Below are positions 2,009 to 56,400 of a stretch of 64,000 nt of DNA, piece after piece. The position numbers were made by a program, and so were the translations under genes. The stretch is from an uncultured Candidatus Saccharibacteria bacterium (GTDB lineage: Bacteria > Patescibacteriota > Minisyncoccia > Phycocordibacterales > Phycocordibacteraceae). The stretch spans positions 404,577 through 468,576 of the forward strand of contig CAZDPG010000001.1 of assembly GCA_964507275.1 (NCBI GenBank). Direction: 5' to 3'. The notes below the pieces were generated by a model. It was not told the DNA's origin, made no database searches, and saw only the letters and a list, made by a program, of their open reading frames with translations. Numbering within the stretch: the first letter of the stretch is position 1; every line of letters begins with the position of its first letter.

Positions 2009-2593
2009 TTATTCCATCAACCTGAACCAATCCCTGACAGCTAAGCGCAGGCGCTCAATTTCGTCTTCAGCGAGAGGACTGCAGTGCGCAATCGGTCCTC
2101 GCAGTATGTTCAGATTCGCCATCACACGCTCAACCGCTTTCACACTTGAGAAAATCGAGGCAAAGACATCCCAATTGCCTTTAATAATCTGACCCAGCTC
2201 GCCAAACGTGCAGAAATCGATCGGCTCATCCGAGCGTGGTGTGACACCAGAATCAATCTCTCTTTGCTGACGACCTTCCGCCTCAGTCCGCAAATCATTT
2301 GATACCCGAGTATTCCACCAATTTGGATCTGCAGCGACCAGTGTATCCACGATGAGACGCCTCACCGTTTTTTCGAGCGAATAGAACGTTTCATAGTGAG
2401 GTGCCATCGTGGCGGCCTCACTCCGAATATCCTGCTCGATCTGCGGATAATACGACTTATCGACAACAAGCACACTACTATGTTCCCTTCCCAAATCGAG
2501 GTTGTATTTAGCCTCAATCTCATCGAGGTTGTGCTCGATGAGCTGGCTTGTCATCGCAAATTCCTTTAGAGACGAGGAGGTGTTGCTCTTCAT
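2009..2593 (-). CDS. HEPN-like protein (R-x4-H motif LRGPIAHCSPL near the C-terminus); candidate RNase toxin
   Basis: 194 aa, in a ~47% GC islet. The C-terminal NLNILRGPIAHCSPLAEDEIERL fits the HEPN Rx4-6H catalytic motif and looks Swt1/Abi-like. Its start overlaps the stop of the upstream gene (ATGA). Confidence 0.5.
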   Translation of the reverse strand: MKSNTSSSLKEFAMTSQLIEHNLDEIEAKYNLDLGREHSSVLVVDKSYYPQIEQDIRSEAATMAPHYETFYSLEKTVRRLIVDTLVAADPNWWNTRVSNDLRTEAEGRQQREIDSGVTPRSDEPIDFCTFGELGQIIKGNWDVFASIFSSVKAVERVMANLNILRGPIAHCSPLAEDEIERLRLAVRDWFRLME

Positions 2594-3249
2594 TAGCTTA
2601 AGAGATGATCCTTCAGGCTTTTAAAAATTGCATTGAATACCGCGATATCCGAAGTGGCTGGTAGGTTCAAATTGATTGTATATCCTAGCTTGAGGTCTAC
2701 AGCCGTCCTAACTTTAGGCGGCCGCTCTTCCTGTACTCCAGATACTTCTTCTTCTCTCTCTTCAACTCCCGAGGGTTCTTCGCCGGTAGCATCGAAATTA
2801 GCAAGACTTTTCAAAGCTTCGAAAGATCCAATAATTCCCCTAACTGTACTGGAATTCGCTTCAAGACCAGTCGCTTGTACAACGACCCCCTTCAATTCAT
2901 TTGCCTTCAAATCGTGAGCGTATTCATTCAACTCGTAAAGCGCCGCGTACCCCGCCTTCACCGCTTGAGCTGCTGCACTAGACCGGAGTGCGGGGTTGCG
3001 AAATCTCTTATAAAGATCAGTTGGGGTCCCATCTCCATTGAGAAAACCGGTACGCTTCAGAAAAGGTATGATTGGTTTTGCTGTACCTCCTTTTTGACCC
3101 AACTTTGTAGCGAGAAAATCCTGGGTAAACCGATCGGGTGTCGCCGCTTGGACAACACGCTCAAGCGTCTTAGTTATGACGCCGTAAGCATTCATGTAGG
3201 GAATTTTTATGCTCCCGTTTGCACTACGCTTAGTTTCTCCGTCAGCCAT
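2593..3249 (-). CDS. Hypothetical protein, proximal gene of the two-gene islet operon (possible partner or antitoxin of the HEPN protein)
   Basis: 218 aa with no domain I can name. The stop and start overlap by 1 nt with the HEPN gene. Low-GC context directly downstream of the tmRNA. Confidence 0.5.
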   Translation of the reverse strand: MADGETKRSANGSIKIPYMNAYGVITKTLERVVQAATPDRFTQDFLATKLGQKGGTAKPIIPFLKRTGFLNGDGTPTDLYKRFRNPALRSSAAAQAVKAGYAALYELNEYAHDLKANELKGVVVQATGLEANSSTVRGIIGSFEALKSLANFDATGEEPSGVEEREEEVSGVQEERPPKVRTAVDLKLGYTINLNLPATSDIAVFNAIFKSLKDHLLS

Positions 3250-3295
3250 GGTACATATAGTCCTCCTTTTAGCAGAAAAAGCAAGTCTTTTAGCA

Positions 3296-3306
3296 GGTTC
3301 TAATAT
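3296..3306. repeat. 11-bp direct repeat ggttctaatat (copy 2)
   Basis: See copy 1 at 1977..1987. Confidence 0.35.
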
Positions 3307-3427
3307 TTGACCTTATTACCCCCGCCAAATGACCCCTCGGTCGGCTCAGGTTCACTCAAATTAGGCAGATGTATTGCTCCGCCATATATCAAACAGGTTC
3401 TAACATCCTTTAGGAAGTCCCACATAT

Positions 3428-3469
3428 AGAAACTAAGAACCCTCGCACGTGCGAGGGTTCTTAGTTTCT
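3428..3469. repeat. 42-bp perfect palindrome (20-nt arms, CG centre) in a divergent intergenic region, with a third AGAAACT half-site at 3498-3504
   Basis: agaaactaagaaccctcgca|cg|tgcgagggttcttagtttct is an exact reverse complement. It lies between the divergent genes 2593..3249(-) and 3579..4238(+), so it is a candidate operator or strong hairpin. Confidence 0.8.
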
Positions 3470-3578
3470 GAAACAATCGCAGTATCTTGCGTGTACTAGA
3501 AACTGAGAGCAGAAGAACCACCCGCTTCTCCCTCGCGTCATGGCACTCCTTATCGGGCATCTCGTAACATTCATCATT

Positions 3579-4238
3579 ATGATTGACTTCAAAAAAATTG
3601 CGGCCGTCCCTGTATTAGCAGCAACCTTTATCGTGGGCGGTGCAGTAACTGCTCTTGCGACCACCGCTTCCGCGGCAAATCAGGACGGAACCGGGCCAGC
3701 ACAGAGTGCCCAGAGAGCCCACGGGAGAGGTCCCGGCATCGGCGGCACTATCACCGCGATACAGGGTTCGACTATTACCATCACCGATAAGCGCGATGCC
3801 AAGACATACACCATCGACGCGAGCGGCGCGACAGTGAAGAAGATGTCGATAGGCACAGCGCCGGTAACCGAGACGCTCGCTGATCTCGCTGTCGGAGAAA
3901 TGATCATGGTCCGCGGAACCGTCTCCGGCACTTCGGTCACCGCGACAGAAGTCATGGAGGGCGACTTCCGTTTCGACGGCACAAGGCCGATGCAGGGTAA
4001 CCGACCAGGCGTCATAGGAACCGTCACTGCTGTACAGGGTTCGACTATCACGGTCACGAACATGGATGGCACCGTGCATACGATCGATGCGAGCGAAGCC
4101 ATTGTCGAGAAGCATGTGAGTAGCTCCCTTTCAGACATCACTGTCGGTGTCCGCATCAACGCGATGGGCACCATTTCCGGCACTTCAGTGAAAGCGAAAG
4201 TAATAGTAACCGGCGCTCCAATACTTCCCGTACGGTAG
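3579..4238 (+). CDS. Secreted protein with two internal ~75-aa tandem repeats (DUF5666-like); the ORF-track start 3540 is an alternative
   Basis: Signal peptide MIDFKKIAAVPVLAATFIVGGAVTALATTASAA. Repeats GTITAIQGSTITITD...TIDASGATV and GTVTAVQGSTITVTN...TIDASEAIV. It is the first gene of the ECF sigma cluster. Confidence 0.6.
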   Translation: MIDFKKIAAVPVLAATFIVGGAVTALATTASAANQDGTGPAQSAQRAHGRGPGIGGTITAIQGSTITITDKRDAKTYTIDASGATVKKMSIGTAPVTETLADLAVGEMIMVRGTVSGTSVTATEVMEGDFRFDGTRPMQGNRPGVIGTVTAVQGSTITVTNMDGTVHTIDASEAIVEKHVSSSLSDITVGVRINAMGTISGTSVKAKVIVTGAPILPVR

Positions 4239-23341: not shown

Positions 23342-23406
23342 AGATTTGTTGATTATACACAGGGTGATTCTAATCACCCGATGTGCTACGACATGACTTC
23401 CGTTTC

Positions 23407-23820
23407 CTAAATCATGAGAACCGCCCCGATGGTTATCAGAGCCGCCCCGAAGAGCGCCTTCCAAGAAAACTGCGTACCTAGAAATAAGAGGGAGAGGAGG
23501 AGGACAAACACGACGCTTGTCCGGTCGATGGCAGACACGCCAGGCGCCGGACCAATCTTGAGTGCAGAGAACATGGCGAGCCACGAGAGCGCGCCAGCGA
23601 TGCCAGAGAGCGTAATGAAAAGAAGCGCCCGCCCGTGCGGCAAAGATGCGAGATTAATCTTACCCAACCCTAAAGATACGACGACGAGGAATCCCGCCAT
23701 TATGACCGCCCGTACTGTCGTCGCGACGGTCGTATCAACACCCTGAAGACCGATTTTCCCGAGCACTGCCACCAGAGCAGCAAAGACTGCCCCGACGAGT
23801 GCCAGCAACATCCATGTCAT
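23407..23820 (-). CDS. EamA-like (DMT superfamily) small membrane protein
   Basis: 137 aa with 4 TM helices and an EamA-type signature. Confidence 0.55.
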   Translation of the reverse strand: MTWMLLALVGAVFAALVAVLGKIGLQGVDTTVATTVRAVIMAGFLVVVSLGLGKINLASLPHGRALLFITLSGIAGALSWLAMFSALKIGPAPGVSAIDRTSVVFVLLLSLLFLGTQFSWKALFGAALITIGAVLMI

Positions 23821-23841
23821 AGGGAAATCATACCGCGCGAA

Positions 23842-24429
23842 TTACTCCTGGCCAGGATTCGGTATGAAATGGATTGACTCAAGAAGCGGCTGGAAATCGC
23901 GTCGAATGTCGGAGTCCTTGTCCAAGAACTGTCCTGTTATGACGTAAACACTGTCTCCATGAGCAACCACGGCGTTCTCTGATGCATAGAGGCCGTCTGC
24001 TATATAGCGTATCGCATTGGCTCCACCAACCGTAGTCTCTGAAACATCGCCCGTCTTGAGGTTGATATTGCTGTACGGAATGTGTGTATCAGCCCACGTC
24101 TGCGGCCACTGCTTCTGCGGATTCTCAAAGATATATATCGCTATGACCGCAGGTCCCTCGCCGCCGACAGGCATTTCTCGCGACGCGTCCTCGGCACGGA
24201 TGAGAGTGAGTGCCTTCACGAGACCCGCTTGCGCATCTGCAGGCGCTGATTCTTCGAGCACATAGCCCTGCGGCCCAGAACGATAAGAAAACTCAATGCC
24301 AAGCTCGCTACTACTAAAGGTCGAGTACTGAGTATTTAGTCCCAGATTAATTTCTGTGACATCTGTTCGAAGCAGGACGAGCCCTGCCACGGCGAGCACT
24401 GCCACAAGGATGAGTAGCATTTTCTTCAT
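23842..24429 (-). CDS. Secreted hypothetical protein
   Basis: Signal peptide MKKMLLILVAVLAVAGLVLL. The ORF track extends to 24456. Confidence 0.5.
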   Translation of the reverse strand: MKKMLLILVAVLAVAGLVLLRTDVTEINLGLNTQYSTFSSSELGIEFSYRSGPQGYVLEESAPADAQAGLVKALTLIRAEDASREMPVGGEGPAVIAIYIFENPQKQWPQTWADTHIPYSNINLKTGDVSETTVGGANAIRYIADGLYASENAVVAHGDSVYVITGQFLDKDSDIRRDFQPLLESIHFIPNPGQE

Positions 24430-24436
24430 GTTCACA

Positions 24437-24718
24437 TCAGATCTGCGCGCCGTCACCGAGATTCACCTCAGCCTTATAACGCTCAATTACCTCAGGATGC
24501 TTGCCTTCTTTGCACTCAGCGACGAATTTCTCAGCACTCGCGCCATCGGGGAAGGTCATGTAAGAGAGAGATCCCTCGCACACCGCATTGATGTCGATCT
24601 TGCCCTGTGAAGCCGTATCGGTTTGCCTTTGTGTGGAGAGACCATAGCCTATACCCACAATAACGAGCCCTGCAAGAATAATTAAAGCTGTTTTCATAGC
24701 GGCGAGTGTTTTCCTCAT
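24437..24718 (-). CDS. Small secreted or membrane-anchored protein
   Basis: 93 aa with an N-terminal TM/signal and two Cys. Confidence 0.4.
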   Translation of the reverse strand: MRKTLAAMKTALIILAGLVIVGIGYGLSTQRQTDTASQGKIDINAVCEGSLSYMTFPDGASAEKFVAECKEGKHPEVIERYKAEVNLGDGAQI

Positions 24719-24878
24719 GATGATAATTATACGCTCCTAACCCGTCTAGGTCGCCGGGTACCAAAAACTAAGCTGCTGGCCTCCTCGGATTCGTACATTG
24801 TACCGTGAGGCACTATAAGGGTTTTCTGGCGCCTTTTTTCAGCCCCTTTCGACCCTCCTCGGAATGGCGCTTTCGTCG

Positions 24879-25421
24879 CTAAATGTTACTAACTCTATTG
24901 TGGATATACGCTGACGCCTCCTGACGGAAGGATTCAATAAATTCGTTGGGGATATTGTGTTCTCCTCGTATCGCATAAGCTCTCATATTACTCAGGTACT
25001 CCCACTCAACTATCGCCATAATGACTTGTTCGAGAGTTTTGTTTGGAAGCTGAATTAGATCAGTGTAATAACCGTCTGCACCGAGGTCTTGTGCATCGAA
25101 CTTTCTCCGAGTATCAAGAATGATATTTAGGATATCGTTTTCCGAATATGACGGAACAAACTTATTTTCAGCATTTTCTTGCCTGAATTTCTTTATATCC
25201 CCAACCGTCGCATCATTCCGGAGCCCACTTTCATTTGTGAGGCTCTCAATGTTAACAGACGGTTTTGCGGTTTTTGCCCATGCTTTAAAAGCGGAAGAAT
25301 TCTCATCCTTCAGCTTCTTATAAATCCTTATCTGGTGGCTTACTACTCCCTTATATCCAAGAAACGGCAATGCCTTTACGAGCAATCCGGCGAGAAATCC
25401 CCTAGAATTCAAAATCTGCAT
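24879..25421 (-). CDS. Hypothetical protein in the ~40% GC islet
   Basis: 180 aa with no recognisable domain. Strongly AT-shifted codon usage relative to the flanks. Confidence 0.45.
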   Translation of the reverse strand: MQILNSRGFLAGLLVKALPFLGYKGVVSHQIRIYKKLKDENSSAFKAWAKTAKPSVNIESLTNESGLRNDATVGDIKKFRQENAENKFVPSYSENDILNIILDTRRKFDAQDLGADGYYTDLIQLPNKTLEQVIMAIVEWEYLSNMRAYAIRGEHNIPNEFIESFRQEASAYIHNRVSNI

Positions 25422-25483
25422 TTCTGTATTTTATCACCTTCAAACTCCCGATGGGTCAAAGTGGCCAATCTCCTTCATGATTG

Positions 25484-26173
25484 TTACTTCATATATCCTC
25501 CTCCAGAACCCATTTGCTCTCCAAATTTATATAAGAAATTCTGTTGCGTCTCATATGTCTTCTCAGGAAAACCGGCAATGGCGGCGTTATACTTAATGGT
25601 AAGCGAACAAACCATATCTTCACCGCCCTGCAAACTTATAGATTTTACGATACTTTGGTTGATGCCTATAACATCATTTTTCGACACAAACGTCGGTGGT
25701 TCTTTAGACGGACAATCCATAGCCTGGTATAAAATTCTTGCAGGTAAATTCCCAGAATTTTTTATAAAAATCCGATAGTCTGATTTTTTAGATACTAAAT
25801 CCGTATTTCCTTCAACATTTTCAATTGTCAGGTATGGTCTCGTCCTGAGTTCGAATTCAATGCCTGCTCTTTGTGTCGCAAGCCAAGAGAAAATCATACT
25901 TGAAACAGCAACAATGGCTAAAATTCTATTTGTTAAAATTGAATTTCTTCTTTCCAAATTTATTGCTTCATTTTCTTTTTCGTAAACGTTTGATTTTTCA
26001 ATCTCCATATCCATCTCATCCTTAAAATCATCCGCTAGGCTCTTTTCGGCTCTTTCTCTCACACTGGAAAAGGCAAGTCCACGTTCAGCGAAGTTGTTTT
26101 GCATCTCTAACAAATCCCGGTCGTGCTTTCTTTTACGGAACCTTAACCAAATCTCAAGATATTTATGATTCAT
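25484..26173 (-). CDS. Hypothetical single-pass membrane protein in the low-GC islet
   Basis: Start MNHKYLEIW at 26173, only 14 nt from the tRNA-Gln 3' end. A cytoplasmic helical N-terminus, then TM ILAIVAVSSMIFSWL, then a ~130-aa external domain. Confidence 0.45.
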   Translation of the reverse strand: MNHKYLEIWLRFRKRKHDRDLLEMQNNFAERGLAFSSVRERAEKSLADDFKDEMDMEIEKSNVYEKENEAINLERRNSILTNRILAIVAVSSMIFSWLATQRAGIEFELRTRPYLTIENVEGNTDLVSKKSDYRIFIKNSGNLPARILYQAMDCPSKEPPTFVSKNDVIGINQSIVKSISLQGGEDMVCSLTIKYNAAIAGFPEKTYETQQNFLYKFGEQMGSGGGYMK

Positions 26174-26186
26174 ATTGTGATCTCTG

Positions 26187-26257
26187 CTGCGGGTCAGGGA
26201 CTCGAACCCCAATACCATCCTCCAGAGGGATGTGTCCTACCATTAGACGAACCCGCA
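26187..26257 (-). tRNA. tRNA-Gln (anticodon CTG); CCA not encoded
   Basis: TGCGGGTTCGTCTAATGGTAGGACACATCCCTCTGGAGGATGGTATTGGGGTTCGAGTCCCTGACCCGCAG. U1:A72, anticodon loop CTCTGGA, T-loop TTCGAGT, discriminator G, all as in bacterial tRNA-Gln. Confidence 0.85.
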
Positions 26258-26324
26258 AGAGCACGACACCGAAGTGCCGTGCTCCATAGAAGATACTTGA
26301 AAACGGTCCTTTATTCAACCAGCA

Positions 26325-26864
26325 CTATTGAGTCCAGAACAGGTGGTAGATAAATGAAACGAGAGGATCGGCATCCGGACCGTAGACGATAGCTGCGCCG
26401 AGTGCCCCAGTTATAGTCATACCAACGAGAGCAATGAGCGCGAGGAGGGGCAGGAACCAGGTATCAAGCACGAGGTGAGTAAAGTATCGTCTGAGACTGA
26501 GAACGCGCAGCAAGAAAGGATTCGTCCCGAAGATACGATTGCTCCACCCTCTCTGATCACAGATGCGCGTGAGGTAGGCCGCGGCAAGCACGAGATACAC
26601 GAGTGTCGTTGCAGCAGCAAAAGGTGCATGCACTTCAAGAATGAAATCATTGGGAACAAGTCCTTCGACGAGTTCCTCTGCCATACCGCCAGTGACGAGA
26701 GCCGCAAAGGCCGCGAGTACGCCAGCAAAGAGAAGGAAGGCTTTTACTGGGAATGCCCATGCCTGGCGACGTACCATGGGGAACGCATAGACGCCTAGCT
26801 CAAGGAGCGAATATACCGCGAGCAGGCCTATCGGGAAATGCACAAAGAGAGGGTGGATGTTCAT
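26325..26864 (-). CDS. DUF2231-like membrane protein
   Basis: N-terminal HPLFVHFPIGLL motif with 4-5 TM helices. Confidence 0.6.
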   Translation of the reverse strand: MNIHPLFVHFPIGLLAVYSLLELGVYAFPMVRRQAWAFPVKAFLLFAGVLAAFAALVTGGMAEELVEGLVPNDFILEVHAPFAAATTLVYLVLAAAYLTRICDQRGWSNRIFGTNPFLLRVLSLRRYFTHLVLDTWFLPLLALIALVGMTITGALGAAIVYGPDADPLVSFIYHLFWTQ

Positions 26865-53904: not shown

Positions 53905-54327
53905 ATGATGGGAGCTTTTACTCAGACTAAATTAGGATATCTTATGGACATCACCGTATTTCTTGCTCAGATCTGGGGGCCAGTTATCATCGCAGTCGGA
54001 ATCGGCGTCTATACGAGTCGCAGTTACTACCTCAAGATCTACCATGAACTCGAGAATGAGGCGTTTGCTGTTCTTATCTTCGGTATGGTGGCTCTTGCGG
54101 CGGGTATTGTTCACATACAGGTTCATAACCTATGGGATACGCTTCCGCAGATTGTGGTGAGTCTTCTCGGTTGGGGACTTCTCCTTAAGGGAATTGTTTG
54201 CACCTCCTTCCCGCGTATTGCCGATCGCGCTGGGGACTGGTGGGTCAGTACGAAACTGATTCCTGTAGCTGGTGGTTTTATGTTCTTTCTTGGAGCATAT
54301 CTCTCTTGGTTCGGGTACTTCGCATAG
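53905..54327 (+). CDS. Hypothetical 4-TM membrane protein (islet cargo)
   Basis: 140 aa, hydrophobic. Confidence 0.45.
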   Translation: MMGAFTQTKLGYLMDITVFLAQIWGPVIIAVGIGVYTSRSYYLKIYHELENEAFAVLIFGMVALAAGIVHIQVHNLWDTLPQIVVSLLGWGLLLKGIVCTSFPRIADRAGDWWVSTKLIPVAGGFMFFLGAYLSWFGYFA

Positions 54328-54336
54328 TCTCTACTC

Positions 54337-55716
54337 GTGACGAACGGAAAGAGAACTTACGGGCTTGAAAGACGTGCATACACTACAACTCGGACGTTGC
54401 TTAGGTTATTGCGGTCTGAACCTATAAAACGCGTACCGAAGCAGTTAGCACGCAAGAAAATCAAGATCGCTTTTATTCATAACGAAAAGAAGATTCATGT
54501 CGGTGCGCATACTGGAGCCGCACAAATCAATCGGCTCATGTCTGCCGCGCTCGCAGAACATGGGATAGAGGTTCGCAACTTCTATCCACGAACACAACTC
54601 ACCGATACTCCCGTGCATTTGAAAGGTCTCGCTAATATCCTTTTCTTCTACTCCCTGCTTGAACATAAAGAGGCCATGCTCAAGTATGACATCATTCAAG
54701 GAACGACATATACTCCGCTCCCTCTTCTTTCATTCAACGTACCGACGGTATGCCACTTTGGATCAACCGCGCGAGGATACCTCGAATCTACCCCCCGCAC
54801 CTCGGACATGTCCGAAGAAGAGCGTAGTGTCTTCAAGGAAATATTGCGGCTCGCCATCATACCGGAGTTTGACCTTAAGACCATGCGTCCGATCGAGGAT
54901 ATTGCAGATATTGAAGCTATTACCGCGACACGCGCGACGGCCTGTATCGCCACATCGCAAAAAGTGCGAGACGAACTCATTCAGATAGGTGTTGCCGTCG
55001 ACCGTATTCGCGTTATTCATAACGCGATCGAAGATTATTGGTTTGACCCTCCGCGCGATGTCATTCGACAACCCCCACACTTAGTATTCCTCGGCCGGCT
55101 CGGTAATGATGTATTTACTCTCAAGCTAAAAGGACTGTCTCGGTTGGTGCAACTGTACCGAGCGTTTCCCGATACGCCTAAGACAACCGTCTGTATGACT
55201 ACGAATCGCAAACTCAAAGAGTGGTTGCGAGTCTCTTTCCCGAAGCACTATATGTACGTCAATCTTCGCAAGGACCTCATTCCGGGTGCGCTCGCGCCGC
55301 TGTACGGTAGCATCCTCCTCCTGACTTCTCGTTATGAAGGGTTCTCTCTTAGTCTTGTCGAGGGAATGTCGCAAGGACTTGTGCCGATTACGTTTTCTGT
55401 GGGGGTCGCGCCTGAAATCATCCGCCATGGAGAGAACGGATTTTTAGTATCAACGATGAGCGAAGCGATATCCTGCGTTAAGGAGCTGCTCGCTAACGAA
55501 GAGAAGCGTCTTGCTATGGCGGATGCCGCGAAGCAAACTGCTGAACAATTCCGAAGTACGCGTATCGCAATGGAACTTGAAATGCTCTACCGAAGTATTA
55601 AGGAAAATCGCATCTGCGAGAACCATTCTGCTCTTTCACCCGAATCAGAGAAAAAGAATCGCACAGACAAGAATGATGCTCGCCAGAATATTAAACACGG
55701 AAGCGATACCGAGTGA
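54337..55716 (+). CDS. GT4-family (GT-B) glycosyltransferase
   Basis: C-terminal EGFSLSLVEGMSQGLVPI (E-x7-E) motif. The N-terminal start is uncertain; the low-complexity C-terminal tail overlaps the convergent ORF by ~70 nt. Confidence 0.65.
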   Translation: MTNGKRTYGLERRAYTTTRTLLRLLRSEPIKRVPKQLARKKIKIAFIHNEKKIHVGAHTGAAQINRLMSAALAEHGIEVRNFYPRTQLTDTPVHLKGLANILFFYSLLEHKEAMLKYDIIQGTTYTPLPLLSFNVPTVCHFGSTARGYLESTPRTSDMSEEERSVFKEILRLAIIPEFDLKTMRPIEDIADIEAITATRATACIATSQKVRDELIQIGVAVDRIRVIHNAIEDYWFDPPRDVIRQPPHLVFLGRLGNDVFTLKLKGLSRLVQLYRAFPDTPKTTVCMTTNRKLKEWLRVSFPKHYMYVNLRKDLIPGALAPLYGSILLLTSRYEGFSLSLVEGMSQGLVPITFSVGVAPEIIRHGENGFLVSTMSEAISCVKELLANEEKRLAMADAAKQTAEQFRSTRIAMELEMLYRSIKENRICENHSALSPESEKKNRTDKNDARQNIKHGSDTE

Positions 55717-55953
55717 GATGAGTCCGCGGTGCAAGGCATATAAAAGCCACACGATGCTGTTCAGCAGAATCAGCAAAAAGGTCGGCAAAGAAACTCCAGC
55801 CGTTGAGCCGCTTGAGAGAACTGCCCACACTTGGGGGTACAGTGCGACACCGGACACGAAGCCGTTGAGGAGCGCAAGACGGTCGATAAAATGATGATGT
55901 AAAGTGGGCATGAACAAATAGTATAACGCAACCCTTGAAAGTCGCCTGACCAA
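55645..55953 (-). CDS. PQ-loop / SemiSWEET-like small membrane protein (islet cargo)
   Basis: LLNGFVSGVALYPQVWAVLSSGSTAGVSLPTFLLILL; 3 TM helices. Confidence 0.45.
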   Translation of the reverse strand: MVRRLSRVALYYLFMPTLHHHFIDRLALLNGFVSGVALYPQVWAVLSSGSTAGVSLPTFLLILLNSIVWLLYALHRGLISLGIASVFNILASIILVCAILFL

Positions 55954-56225
55954 ATAGCGATTATCACACTCTTGATGCCTATGAGTTAGGAGGTGCGATT
56001 TTTCTTATGCATGTATTTAAAGCATATCTCCGGTTTGAAGTTCAATACCTGCCCCCATGCACCAGGGCGGGAAGTAGGAACTGTGGTAGATGCTGGACGC
56101 CACCAGTTCGATTCCAATGCCCATGTTCAAAATCTGATGAATTTCGATGTGATTGCGACACGAAACACCGTTGAATACGAGAGTCGGAATCGAACTGGAA
56201 ATATGTTGGAAATGCTGCATGACAG

Positions 56226-56256
56226 AAAAAGCGCCTCTAGTATTTAGGCGCTTTTT
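56226..56256 (-). terminator. Bidirectional hairpin terminator 74 nt downstream of the tRNA-Met(CAT) gene
   Basis: aaaaagcgcct ctagtattt aggcgcttttt. Confidence 0.6.
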
Positions 56257-56329
56257 CTGGTGACCACGGGGGTCGGTACAGTACCGATTTTGCCATGGGG
56301 GCAGGAATGGTTCCTGCGTCACAACCGTG

Positions 56330-56400
56330 TTGCGGGGGCCGGAATCGAACCGGCGTCTGGAGGTTATGAGCCTCCCGAGGTACCTCTCCTCTACCCCGCT
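56330..56400 (-). tRNA. tRNA-Met (anticodon CAT), probably initiator type (A1·A72 mismatch, A73); CCA not encoded
   Basis: AGCGGGGTAGAGGAGAGGTACCTCGGGAGGCTCATAACCTCCAGACGCCGGTTCGATTCCGGCCCCCGCAA. It closely parallels E. coli tRNA-fMet at both ends. The short D-loop and A29:U41 are deviations. Confidence 0.75.

Follow-up and report, generated by a model that had tools for sequence, protein, structure and literature searches.

An AT-rich two-gene islet at the 3' end of tRNA-Gln(CTG): probable acquired cargo of a gene-turnover spot in a Patescibacteria genome

Within a 64-kb stretch of a contig from an uncultured Candidatus Saccharibacteria bacterium (CAZDPG010000001.1, positions 404,577 to 468,576; in the following called the window) lies a small region of low GC content, positions 24879-26185, which begins directly at the 3' end of a tRNA-Gln(CTG) gene and contains two genes without annotation, designated here ORF1 and ORF2 (ORF, open reading frame). 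This islet is probably horizontally acquired AT-rich cargo in a hotspot of gene turnover 3' of tRNA-Gln(CTG) in Paceibacterota genomes, members of the candidate phyla radiation (CPR). Its features and borders, read along the minus strand, are the following.

26186-26257, minus strand: intact tRNA-Gln(CTG) gene, the 3' end of which forms the proximal border of the islet (ARAGORN)
26174-26185, minus strand: 12-nt spacer, AGAGATCACAAT on the coding strand, from the tRNA 3' end to the ATG of ORF1 (sequence)
25484-26173, minus strand: ORF1, 229 amino acids, a predicted N-in single-pass membrane protein of an unannotated, module-shuffling family (ORF list)
25934-26173, minus strand: residues 1-80 of ORF1, a conserved, charged helical module predicted to be cytoplasmic (family alignment, AlphaFold2 model)
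25874-25930, minus strand: residues ~82-100 of ORF1, its sole predicted transmembrane helix, NRILAIVAVSSMIFSWLAT (hydrophobicity, AlphaFold2 model)
25487-25858, minus strand: residues 106-229 of ORF1, a predicted extracytoplasmic beta-sandwich (AlphaFold2 model, Foldseek)
25422-25483, minus strand: spacer of 62 nt between ORF1 and ORF2 (coordinates)
24879-25421, minus strand: ORF2, 180 amino acids, a small protein predicted to be all-helical, with a hydrophobic, basic N-terminal helix (ORF list, AlphaFold2 model)
25143-25301, minus strand: residues 41-93 of ORF2, a lineage-variable insert (family alignment)
24719-24878, minus strand: distal border region, non-coding, with the GC content back at host level (GC windows)

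With a GC content of 0.389 the islet is set apart from the window as a whole (0.54). In windows of 400 nt the values are 0.34-0.43 across 24800-26200 and 0.52-0.58 on either side. The first-pass annotation, which had been made from this DNA without database searches, described the drop as the sharpest of the window, and the trough is in fact the deepest of the 64 kb; the next one, at 2601-3600, has a minimum of 0.44 (300-nt windows below 0.45). The deviation is also seen at third codon positions (GC3). ORF1 has a GC content of 0.368 with a GC3 of 0.34 and ORF2 a GC content of 0.414 with a GC3 of 0.43, compared to a GC3 of 0.53-0.70 in the six flanking genes, and codon choice is therefore affected, beyond amino acid content alone. 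The tRNA at the border was also recognized by Rfam as a full-length tRNA (RF00005, 26187-26257, 53.2 bits). The gap between tRNA and ORF1, previously given as 14 nt, was measured as 12 nt by the ARAGORN end and as 13 nt by the Rfam end. The 34 nt at the 3' end of this tRNA-Gln are identical in four related loci (L020, L029, L030, and L070), and the similarity ends straight after ...CCCGCAGC.

The surroundings of the islet were compared with 15 related loci anchored on the DUF2231 gene and 80 anchored on the MatE gene (MatE 56-82% identical). In the DUF2231-anchored loci the CTP synthase is 84-88% identical to that of the window, and FtsE 88-91% identical in the four loci measured. The neighbouring features of the window and the content found 3' of tRNA-Gln(CTG) in individual related loci (L numbers) are listed below.

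26325-26864, minus strand: DUF2231 membrane protein gene (PF09990, Pfam), a conserved core neighbour upstream of the tRNA
23345-24718, minus strand: w93, w204 (lipoprotein-like), and EamA, the remainder of the variable interval before MatE, with host-like GC content
L070: DUF2200 gene of low GC content beginning 28 nt from the tRNA, followed by a membrane protein gene, by an ArsR-like regulator and a likely FMN reductase (both by sequence), then MatE
L017: HAD hydrolase gene and a gene of 94 amino acids, GC content 0.44-0.46
L029: HD gene, HAD gene, an unannotated gene of 174 amino acids, and a VanY-like gene, GC content 0.44-0.48
L030:9499-14562: an unannotated protein of 677 amino acids, two likely DNA methyltransferases (by sequence motifs; one with DPPY), and a large serine recombinase
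L002: PD-T7-4-like DUF4145 gene, three small genes, and an ORF2 homolog
L019 and L020: no low-GC cargo

In most of the loci examined tRNA-Gln(CTG) is found near DUF2231, and the content on its 3' side differs each time. The block prfB-ftsEX-pyrG-DUF2231 lies upstream of the variable interval. Conservation of both genes at this locus among relatives, which the first-pass annotation had proposed to check, was seen in none of the 15 and 80 loci, and w93, w204, and EamA had no homologs there either (tblastn). The islet thus bears out its earlier description as compositionally foreign DNA at the 3' end of tRNA-Gln, both by its GC3 and by its absence from all related loci examined. The closest relative found, L070 (MatE 82% identical), keeps the linkage of tRNA-Gln and MatE with a wholly different gene set in between, and therefore the whole 2.8 kb from 23345 to 26185 is a variable spot, of which ORF1 and ORF2 form the compositionally foreign, tRNA-proximal part. 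Relatives of the DUF2231 gene occur in 49 loci, all but a few of them labelled Patescibacteria (CPR), among these Paceibacterota, Kaiserbacteria, 'Saccharibacteria', and others, and the locus itself occurs on groundwater metagenome contigs with lengths of up to 673 kb, as found by exact-sequence match. The serine recombinase of L030 is composed of Resolvase, Recombinase, and Zn_ribbon_recom domains and lies about 4 kb from the tRNA; this insert looks like a bona fide mobile element of the restriction-modification type at the same hotspot. The orientation of tRNA-Gln(CTG) relative to DUF2231 also flips between close relatives (L018, L019, L022, and L028 versus L017, L020, L023, L029, and L030) and the distance between the two ranges from 7 nt to about 6 kb, which suggests repeated inversions or rearrangements at tRNA-Gln.

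All assemblies of the population carry the islet at 100% identity, and within the population sampled it is thus fixed. Exact matches to the proteins of its neighbours DUF2231 and w204 retrieved the islet-bearing arrangement only. Short contigs from Logan break off within the tRNA, coming from either side (26214-26250), with no alternative junction seen; these breaks were rejected as an alternative junction and are best explained by tRNA k-mers common to co-occurring species, the 3' 34 nt being shared by L020, L029, L030, and L070. Paralogs of ORF1 or ORF2 were found neither in the window nor in about 1.7 Mb of related DNA.

As to the means of delivery, the earlier statement that an integrase is missing holds, as the Pfam annotation of the genes in the 8 kb to each side of the islet shows no recombinase family, and neither ORF1 nor ORF2 has a recombinase domain (Pfam, NCBIfam). 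The first-pass annotation had also pointed to a candidate attachment (att) repeat on the far side of the islet, at 24773-24795. When the tRNA 3' half is aligned locally to 24719-24878 the best score is 13, at a null of 13.5 +/- 2.4 obtained from 794 control windows and 1000 shuffles, 59-61% of which score at least as well, and Rfam finds no tRNA fragment in the distal border region. The candidate repeat was therefore rejected, and there is no detectable att duplication at the islet. The longest exact repeat of the tRNA within 9 kb downstream has 10 nt and lies about 8.7 kb away, well past the islet. Besides an att-like repeat and a tRNA fragment, 24719-24878 also lacks a canonical terminator, and its fold z-score of -0.31 indicates no significant structure. 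With neither a recombinase gene nor an att duplication left, the cargo would have arrived by one of two routes. It may have been delivered by an element targeting the tRNA 3' end which later lost its recombinase and the distal site, or by homologous recombination through the conserved flanks, as in hotspots without an integrase.

Such hotspots have been described by Oliveira, Touchon and Rocha (2017, PMC5635113), who found that fewer than half of the hotspots of horizontal gene transfer encode an integrase, that many have neither integrases nor mobile elements and show recombination in the core genes beside them, and that tRNA and tmRNA genes are frequent neighbours. The locus resembles these hotspots in its fixed tRNA-Gln-MatE interval filled with different accessory genes in each genome, in the tRNA at its edge, and in that no mobile element or mobility protein is recognizable in the spot of the window, the exception among the relatives being the serine recombinase of L030. 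It differs from them in its reduced CPR host, which is outside the clades surveyed there, and in cargo that begins within 12-28 nt of the tRNA; the likeness is drawn here from gene content. With tRNA-linked islands and integrative elements the islet shares the foreign composition, the position at the 3' end of an intact tRNA, the variable content, and a recombinase near the same tRNA in L030, but it has no integrase, distal tRNA repeat or mobility genes and comprises only 1.3 kb with two genes.

A further feature of the hotspot is found in four relatives, where a conserved element of about 120 nt follows tRNA-Gln(CTG) (nhmmer, expect values (E) 1e-27 to 1e-36).

L017:9063-9235, minus strand: tRNA-trailing element
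L020:8654-8825, minus strand: tRNA-trailing element
L029:8830-9005, minus strand: tRNA-trailing element
L019:8547-8712, minus strand: tRNA-trailing element

The tRNA is followed first by a terminator-like hairpin and then by its own T-arm and acceptor 3' half, copied in inverted orientation; some 90 nt that contain conserved hairpins come next, and at the end stands the tRNA 3' end as a direct copy (for example GGTCCCTGACCCGTAGC). Both tRNA-derived copies track lineage-specific changes of the tRNA acceptor stem. RNAalifold yielded 44 pairs, 16 of them compensatory, from only four sequences and with pairing that is partly automatic from the tRNA-derived arms. Neither Rfam, which has no family for it, nor ARAGORN recognizes the element, and neither the window nor viral contigs contain it. 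In L017 and L029 the low-GC cargo begins about 25 nt past its terminal repeat. A structured RNA and a scar of att-like recombination are both conceivable, and it might also, though this is unlikely, mark a site of cargo exchange which works without a locally encoded recombinase. Purely as a hypothesis, recombination between the tRNA 3' end and the repeat of the element would give the direct fusion of tRNA and cargo seen in the window and in L070.

The tight spacing at the tRNA also bears on expression. The 12-nt spacer is too short for a promoter of ORF1, and no terminator-like site was found on the minus strand in 24300-26500, including the 62-nt spacer between the two genes; the terminator-like hairpin which directly follows tRNA-Gln in L017, L019, L020, and L029 is missing from the window. 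With the ATG of ORF1 12 nt past the tRNA and no such hairpin in between, read-through is therefore likely. Both genes would most likely be transcribed by read-through from the promoter of tRNA-Gln, and the mRNA would be freed from the tRNA by tRNA 3' processing. Co-transcription of ORF1 with the tRNA, as suggested in the first-pass annotation, thus appears to be the simplest reading. Upstream of the tRNA, between the stop codon of DUF2231 and the tRNA 5' end, there is an 11-bp inverted repeat, GAGCACGACAC / GTGCCGTGCTC, with a 4-nt loop (minus strand, 26259-26284). Ahead of it lies TTGAAT-17-TATCTT, a possible weak promoter.

The start of ORF1 is the ATG at 26173, as 22 of the 24 other sequences with its N-terminal module begin with MN in the same register and the remaining two with MD and MS. 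A version of 244 amino acids from 26218 (242-244 amino acids in several public assemblies) would start inside the tRNA gene and was rejected, the family alignment supporting 229 amino acids. Close homologs are rare, with only two in 5.8 billion clusters, one of them P0002 at 55% identity. A profile search in 1.84 billion representatives detected 69 relatives at E<=1e-3, and a word-indexed search with an alignment of the N-terminal module (A4) only 4 proteins. More than 30 proteins whose C-terminal parts are unrelated have the N-terminal 80-100 residues in common, which comprise the charged helical module and the transmembrane helix, and the motif of residues 1-80, MNxKxFEIFxKWRxxKYxRDLExLxxDLAxRGLxxSxxR..., is in register from Met1 across these proteins. 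Conversely, the ORF1-type transmembrane helix and C-terminal domain recur behind other N-termini. In seven proteins (P0022, P0023, P0032, P0038, P0045, P0068, and P0073) the helix and sandwich follow a different conserved, cytoplasmic N-domain of about 90 residues (MTxKEKxxLKxLV...GYVEEV). This architecture resembles membrane-tethered one-component regulators, with no Pfam support for a DNA-binding domain, and a winged-helix identity of this N-terminus was dropped for want of Pfam support.

The AlphaFold2 model of ORF1 (predicted local distance difference test, pLDDT, 74.5) consists of helices 3-30 and 37-111 and of six strands between residues 115 and 215, the outer domain having a pLDDT of only about 65-80. 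The hydrophobicity maximum of 1.6 at residues 78-96 lies inside the long predicted helix. In a Foldseek search of the PDB the sandwich matched ApaG (1xq4, E 6e-5, target-normalized template modelling score 0.65) and further the luminal domain of TMEM106B, TRAP-beta, LEA-2, and CARDB, including 8b7d and 3idu, several of them with a probability of 1.0. ORF1 resembles such proteins in that it is predicted to be N-in with one transmembrane helix and has a sandwich of 6 predicted strands (at most 7) as its C-terminal part, and it differs from them in its long conserved cytoplasmic helical module and in that it is no member of their sequence families: no hit to CARDB, LEA-2 or ApaG-like families reached the Pfam gathering score, and of the 70 family members scanned single ones only touch DUF11, DUF1573 or TRAP_beta. 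Matches of ORF1 to DUF2746 (E 0.02) and Cas6d (E 0.007) fall in the charged helical region and were treated as composition artefacts. Family-wide motifs are RPY, KNxGxxPA, and Y195. Of the cysteines 154 and 189, 24 members have both, 8 have neither, and none has only one, and the outer domain is thus probably disulfide-bonded; such co-occurrence is expected of a disulfide and fits an extracytoplasmic location. According to these models and alignments ORF1 is an N-in single-pass protein with a cytoplasmic helical module, one transmembrane helix, and an outer beta-sandwich, from a family which shuffles its modules. This agrees with the first-pass annotation, which had proposed a single-pass membrane protein with a cytoplasmic helical N-terminus.

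The family of ORF2, an orphan one of about 15 clusters, includes 14 relatives at 35-57% identity which share a core of 130 residues. The insert of about 50 residues (41-93) is full in 4 of the 15 members and partial in one more. The AlphaFold2 model is all-helical (pLDDT 85, predicted template modelling score 0.70) and has no fold match, the best E being 0.8 in the PDB and 0.5 in BFVD. A helix of borderline hydrophobicity (Kyte-Doolittle about 1.2-1.4) spans residues 8-27, a basic patch comes after it, and the C-terminal bundle is acidic. Through this N-terminal helix the protein is probably membrane-tethered or membrane-associated, and its earlier designation as soluble is doubtful. The remote-homology search which had been proposed for both proteins gave a fold for the outer domain of ORF1, a beta-sandwich, and none for ORF2. 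Sequence-profile searches of the PDB with the alignments of ORF2 (A1) and of the ORF1 N-module (A4) retrieved nothing meaningful. That the products are without a recognizable domain was confirmed, as Pfam, NCBIfam, PADLOC, and PHROGs yielded noise only for ORF1, ORF2, and the 70 ORF1-family and 15 ORF2-family members.

The genes of the ORF2 family average 12 GC points below their locus, and the homologs of both ORFs are AT-rich in every host examined. At L012:358-885 and L067:3509-3886 the ORF2 homolog is a single-gene low-GC insert (0.32 versus 0.49) between the rpsP operon and the gene of an SMC-like ATPase. In L012 the SMC-like gene is followed by an RNase III gene; the insert of about 50 residues is found in only one of these two copies. 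At L014:7435-7704 and L068:2072-2341 a conserved acidic protein of 89 amino acids (87% identical) lies directly ahead of the ORF2 homolog, whose start it overlaps in L014. This protein matches no family, the window has no counterpart of it, and it may be a partner gene in that subclade.

The contexts in which the homologs occur decide whether the two genes belong together. ORF1 homologs (L001 and L066) and ORF2 homologs (L002, L012/L067, L014, L015, L068, and L069) were never adjacent in the 10 other contexts and 1.7 Mb of related DNA considered, and ORF1 and ORF2 are therefore not a fixed pair; they are independent cargo and no conserved module. Two homologs are again found downstream of tRNA-Gln. 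In L001 the ORF1 homolog follows tRNA-Gln(TTG) and is next to a hydrolase, an unannotated protein of 291 amino acids, and an AbiJ_NTD4/PDC-S32 protein (E 2e-15), and in L002 the ORF2 homolog is within a tRNA-Gln(CTG) islet with the PD-T7-4-like gene (E 9e-9). In L066 an N-module relative, P0025, follows a surface-glycan cluster (NeuB, UDP-glucose dehydrogenase) and precedes YafQ and MNT/HepT genes. The ORF2 homologs of L014 and L068 are near ParB-methyltransferase/DUF5677 genes or an Mrr gene, with Mrr_cat near the homolog P0012, and that of L015 is beside a PaaX-like gene. Defence, restriction-modification or toxin-antitoxin genes thus lie within a few genes in L001, L002, L014, L066, and L068, and not in L012/L067, L015, and L069. 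The families share with defence islands, such as those with PD-T7-4/DUF4145 or AbiJ-like PDC-S32, that they are small, AT-rich, and sporadic and that homologs sit in small variable islets with such genes (L001, L002), and they differ in that ORF1 and ORF2 match no PADLOC model; the association made here comes from neighbourhoods alone.

Four other explanations of the islet have to be weighed, two on its origin and two on its function. The genes could be native, vertically inherited, and specific to the lineage, their low GC content being due to constraints of their own (a composition rich in K, N, I, and E, weak expression). This is highly improbable, given the GC3 of both genes relative to their neighbours, their absence from relatives with an FtsE 88-91% identical, and the sporadic occurrence of both families in unrelated genomic contexts. 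Still, L002 is a distant relative in which the synteny from prfB-ftsEX to tRNA-Gln is kept, and its ORF2 homolog sits at the orthologous position beside tRNA-Gln with 48% identity, which is comparable to the 35-55% of the core proteins at that locus. ORF2 could thus be a long-standing gene of the spot, lost on many occasions, instead of a newcomer. Fixation in the sampled population and the GC offset in every host would also fit native genes. The L002 homolog at the same time weighs against acquisition, as do the loose correlation between gene GC and host GC (r about 0.5) and the lack of an empty-site strain, the insertion event being unobserved. For the expression of the genes it has to be considered that read-through, likely as it is, was read from the sequence, and that promoters of CPR bacteria are poorly known. 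The islet might also be the remnant of a decayed prophage or integrative element which once occupied tRNA-Gln, with ORF1 and ORF2 as a leftover moron or cargo, possibly decaying. The tRNA 3' end is a classic integration site, L030 has a large serine recombinase and likely DNA methyltransferases within about 4 kb of the same tRNA, and the composition is AT-rich. But no recombinase within 8 kb, att duplication or tRNA fragment was found, homologs are missing from IMG/VR and INPHARED with only noise in PHROGs, and both frames are intact, with conserved family residues consistent with selection, which makes a decayed element very improbable.

On the side of function, the first-pass annotation had proposed a two-gene defence or abortive-infection module. 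In such a module ORF1 would act as membrane sensor and ORF2 as effector, or the other way round. The two genes are neighbours on one strand, 62 nt apart and with no terminator, both products are probably membrane-associated, and the list of neighbours of the homologs includes PD-T7-4-like (L002) and PDC-S32/AbiJ_NTD4 (L001) genes, Mrr_cat near P0012, and YafQ and MNT/HepT near P0025; the second islet of the window, beside the tmRNA, contains DUF5343 and HEPN_Swt1. A dedicated module is nevertheless quite improbable, as the families never co-occur elsewhere and as PADLOC yielded no match above noise among the 85 family members (E about 0.003-0.02, each in one member, for ORF1, ORF2, and the other 83 members), and the association with defence genes is anecdotal, without a background rate. 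No toxin or antitoxin family or fold matches ORF1 or ORF2. Rather unlikely, too, are accessory proteins for the surface or host interaction of an episymbiotic CPR cell, in which the outer domain of ORF1 would bind a ligand of a partner cell or of the environment, unrelated to phages. The ORF1 family keeps its cytoplasmic module and swaps at least 4-5 unrelated outer domains, with the sandwich also behind other N-modules, its fold is like binding or adhesion-type sandwiches (CARDB, DUF11, TRAP-beta), and the P0025 homolog ends a cluster for surface-glycan biosynthesis. On the other hand there is no match to an adhesin family, the proteins are small, ORF2 is left unexplained, and masking of a phage receptor fits the same features equally.

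Acquired cargo in a turnover hotspot therefore stays the favoured explanation, and its products would be accessory envelope-associated proteins which act at the membrane. The single most plausible guess on what they do is that they exclude phages or defend the cell at its surface; drawn from anecdotes of neighbourhood, it is tentative and, taken for itself, doubtful, and a part in contact between cells or with a host comes close to it in likelihood. Prophage superinfection-exclusion proteins presumably have a topology similar to that of ORF1. A defence role for ORF1 and ORF2 is possible. Against this guess stand the missing matches to any defence, phage or toxin family and the cargo of the hotspot in other relatives, which is mostly metabolic (HAD, HD, DUF2200).

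Two further spots of the window are of a similar kind. At 2009-3249 (minus strand, GC content 0.44-0.49), directly downstream of the tmRNA (1513-1918), there is a two-gene operon with abutting frames which encodes DUF5343 (E 1e-42) and then a Swt1-like HEPN protein (E 7e-9, RGPIAH motif). This pair is a candidate for a defence or abortive-infection pair, and a more convincing one than ORF1 and ORF2. A milder GC dip (0.49) at 54000-56400 is located beside tRNA-Met (56329-56400) and may be a third tRNA-adjacent variable spot.

Bacteria of the CPR have tiny genomes with an accessory gene pool which is poorly understood, and to our knowledge most of them lack CRISPR. A small flexible spot flanked by a tRNA is a known and ordinary kind of feature, and it is well supported that the locus is one and that the ORF1 and ORF2 families within it are unannotated. 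Reduced CPR genomes thus still keep a classic tRNA-flanked spot of gene turnover, and two orphan, AT-rich, and sporadic protein families are tied to their flexible gene pool. An unlikely but more far-reaching idea is that the ORF1 family would be a CPR-specific transmembrane system with a conserved cytoplasmic module and interchangeable outer domains, and that together with the ORF2 family it would make up undescribed anti-phage genes of the envelope (exclusion or abortive), moving as single-gene cargo between tRNA-Gln spots and expressed as tRNA-mRNA co-transcripts. If the products should be factors of phage exclusion or of host contact, they would add to the few means known by which episymbionts withstand phages or attach to their hosts.

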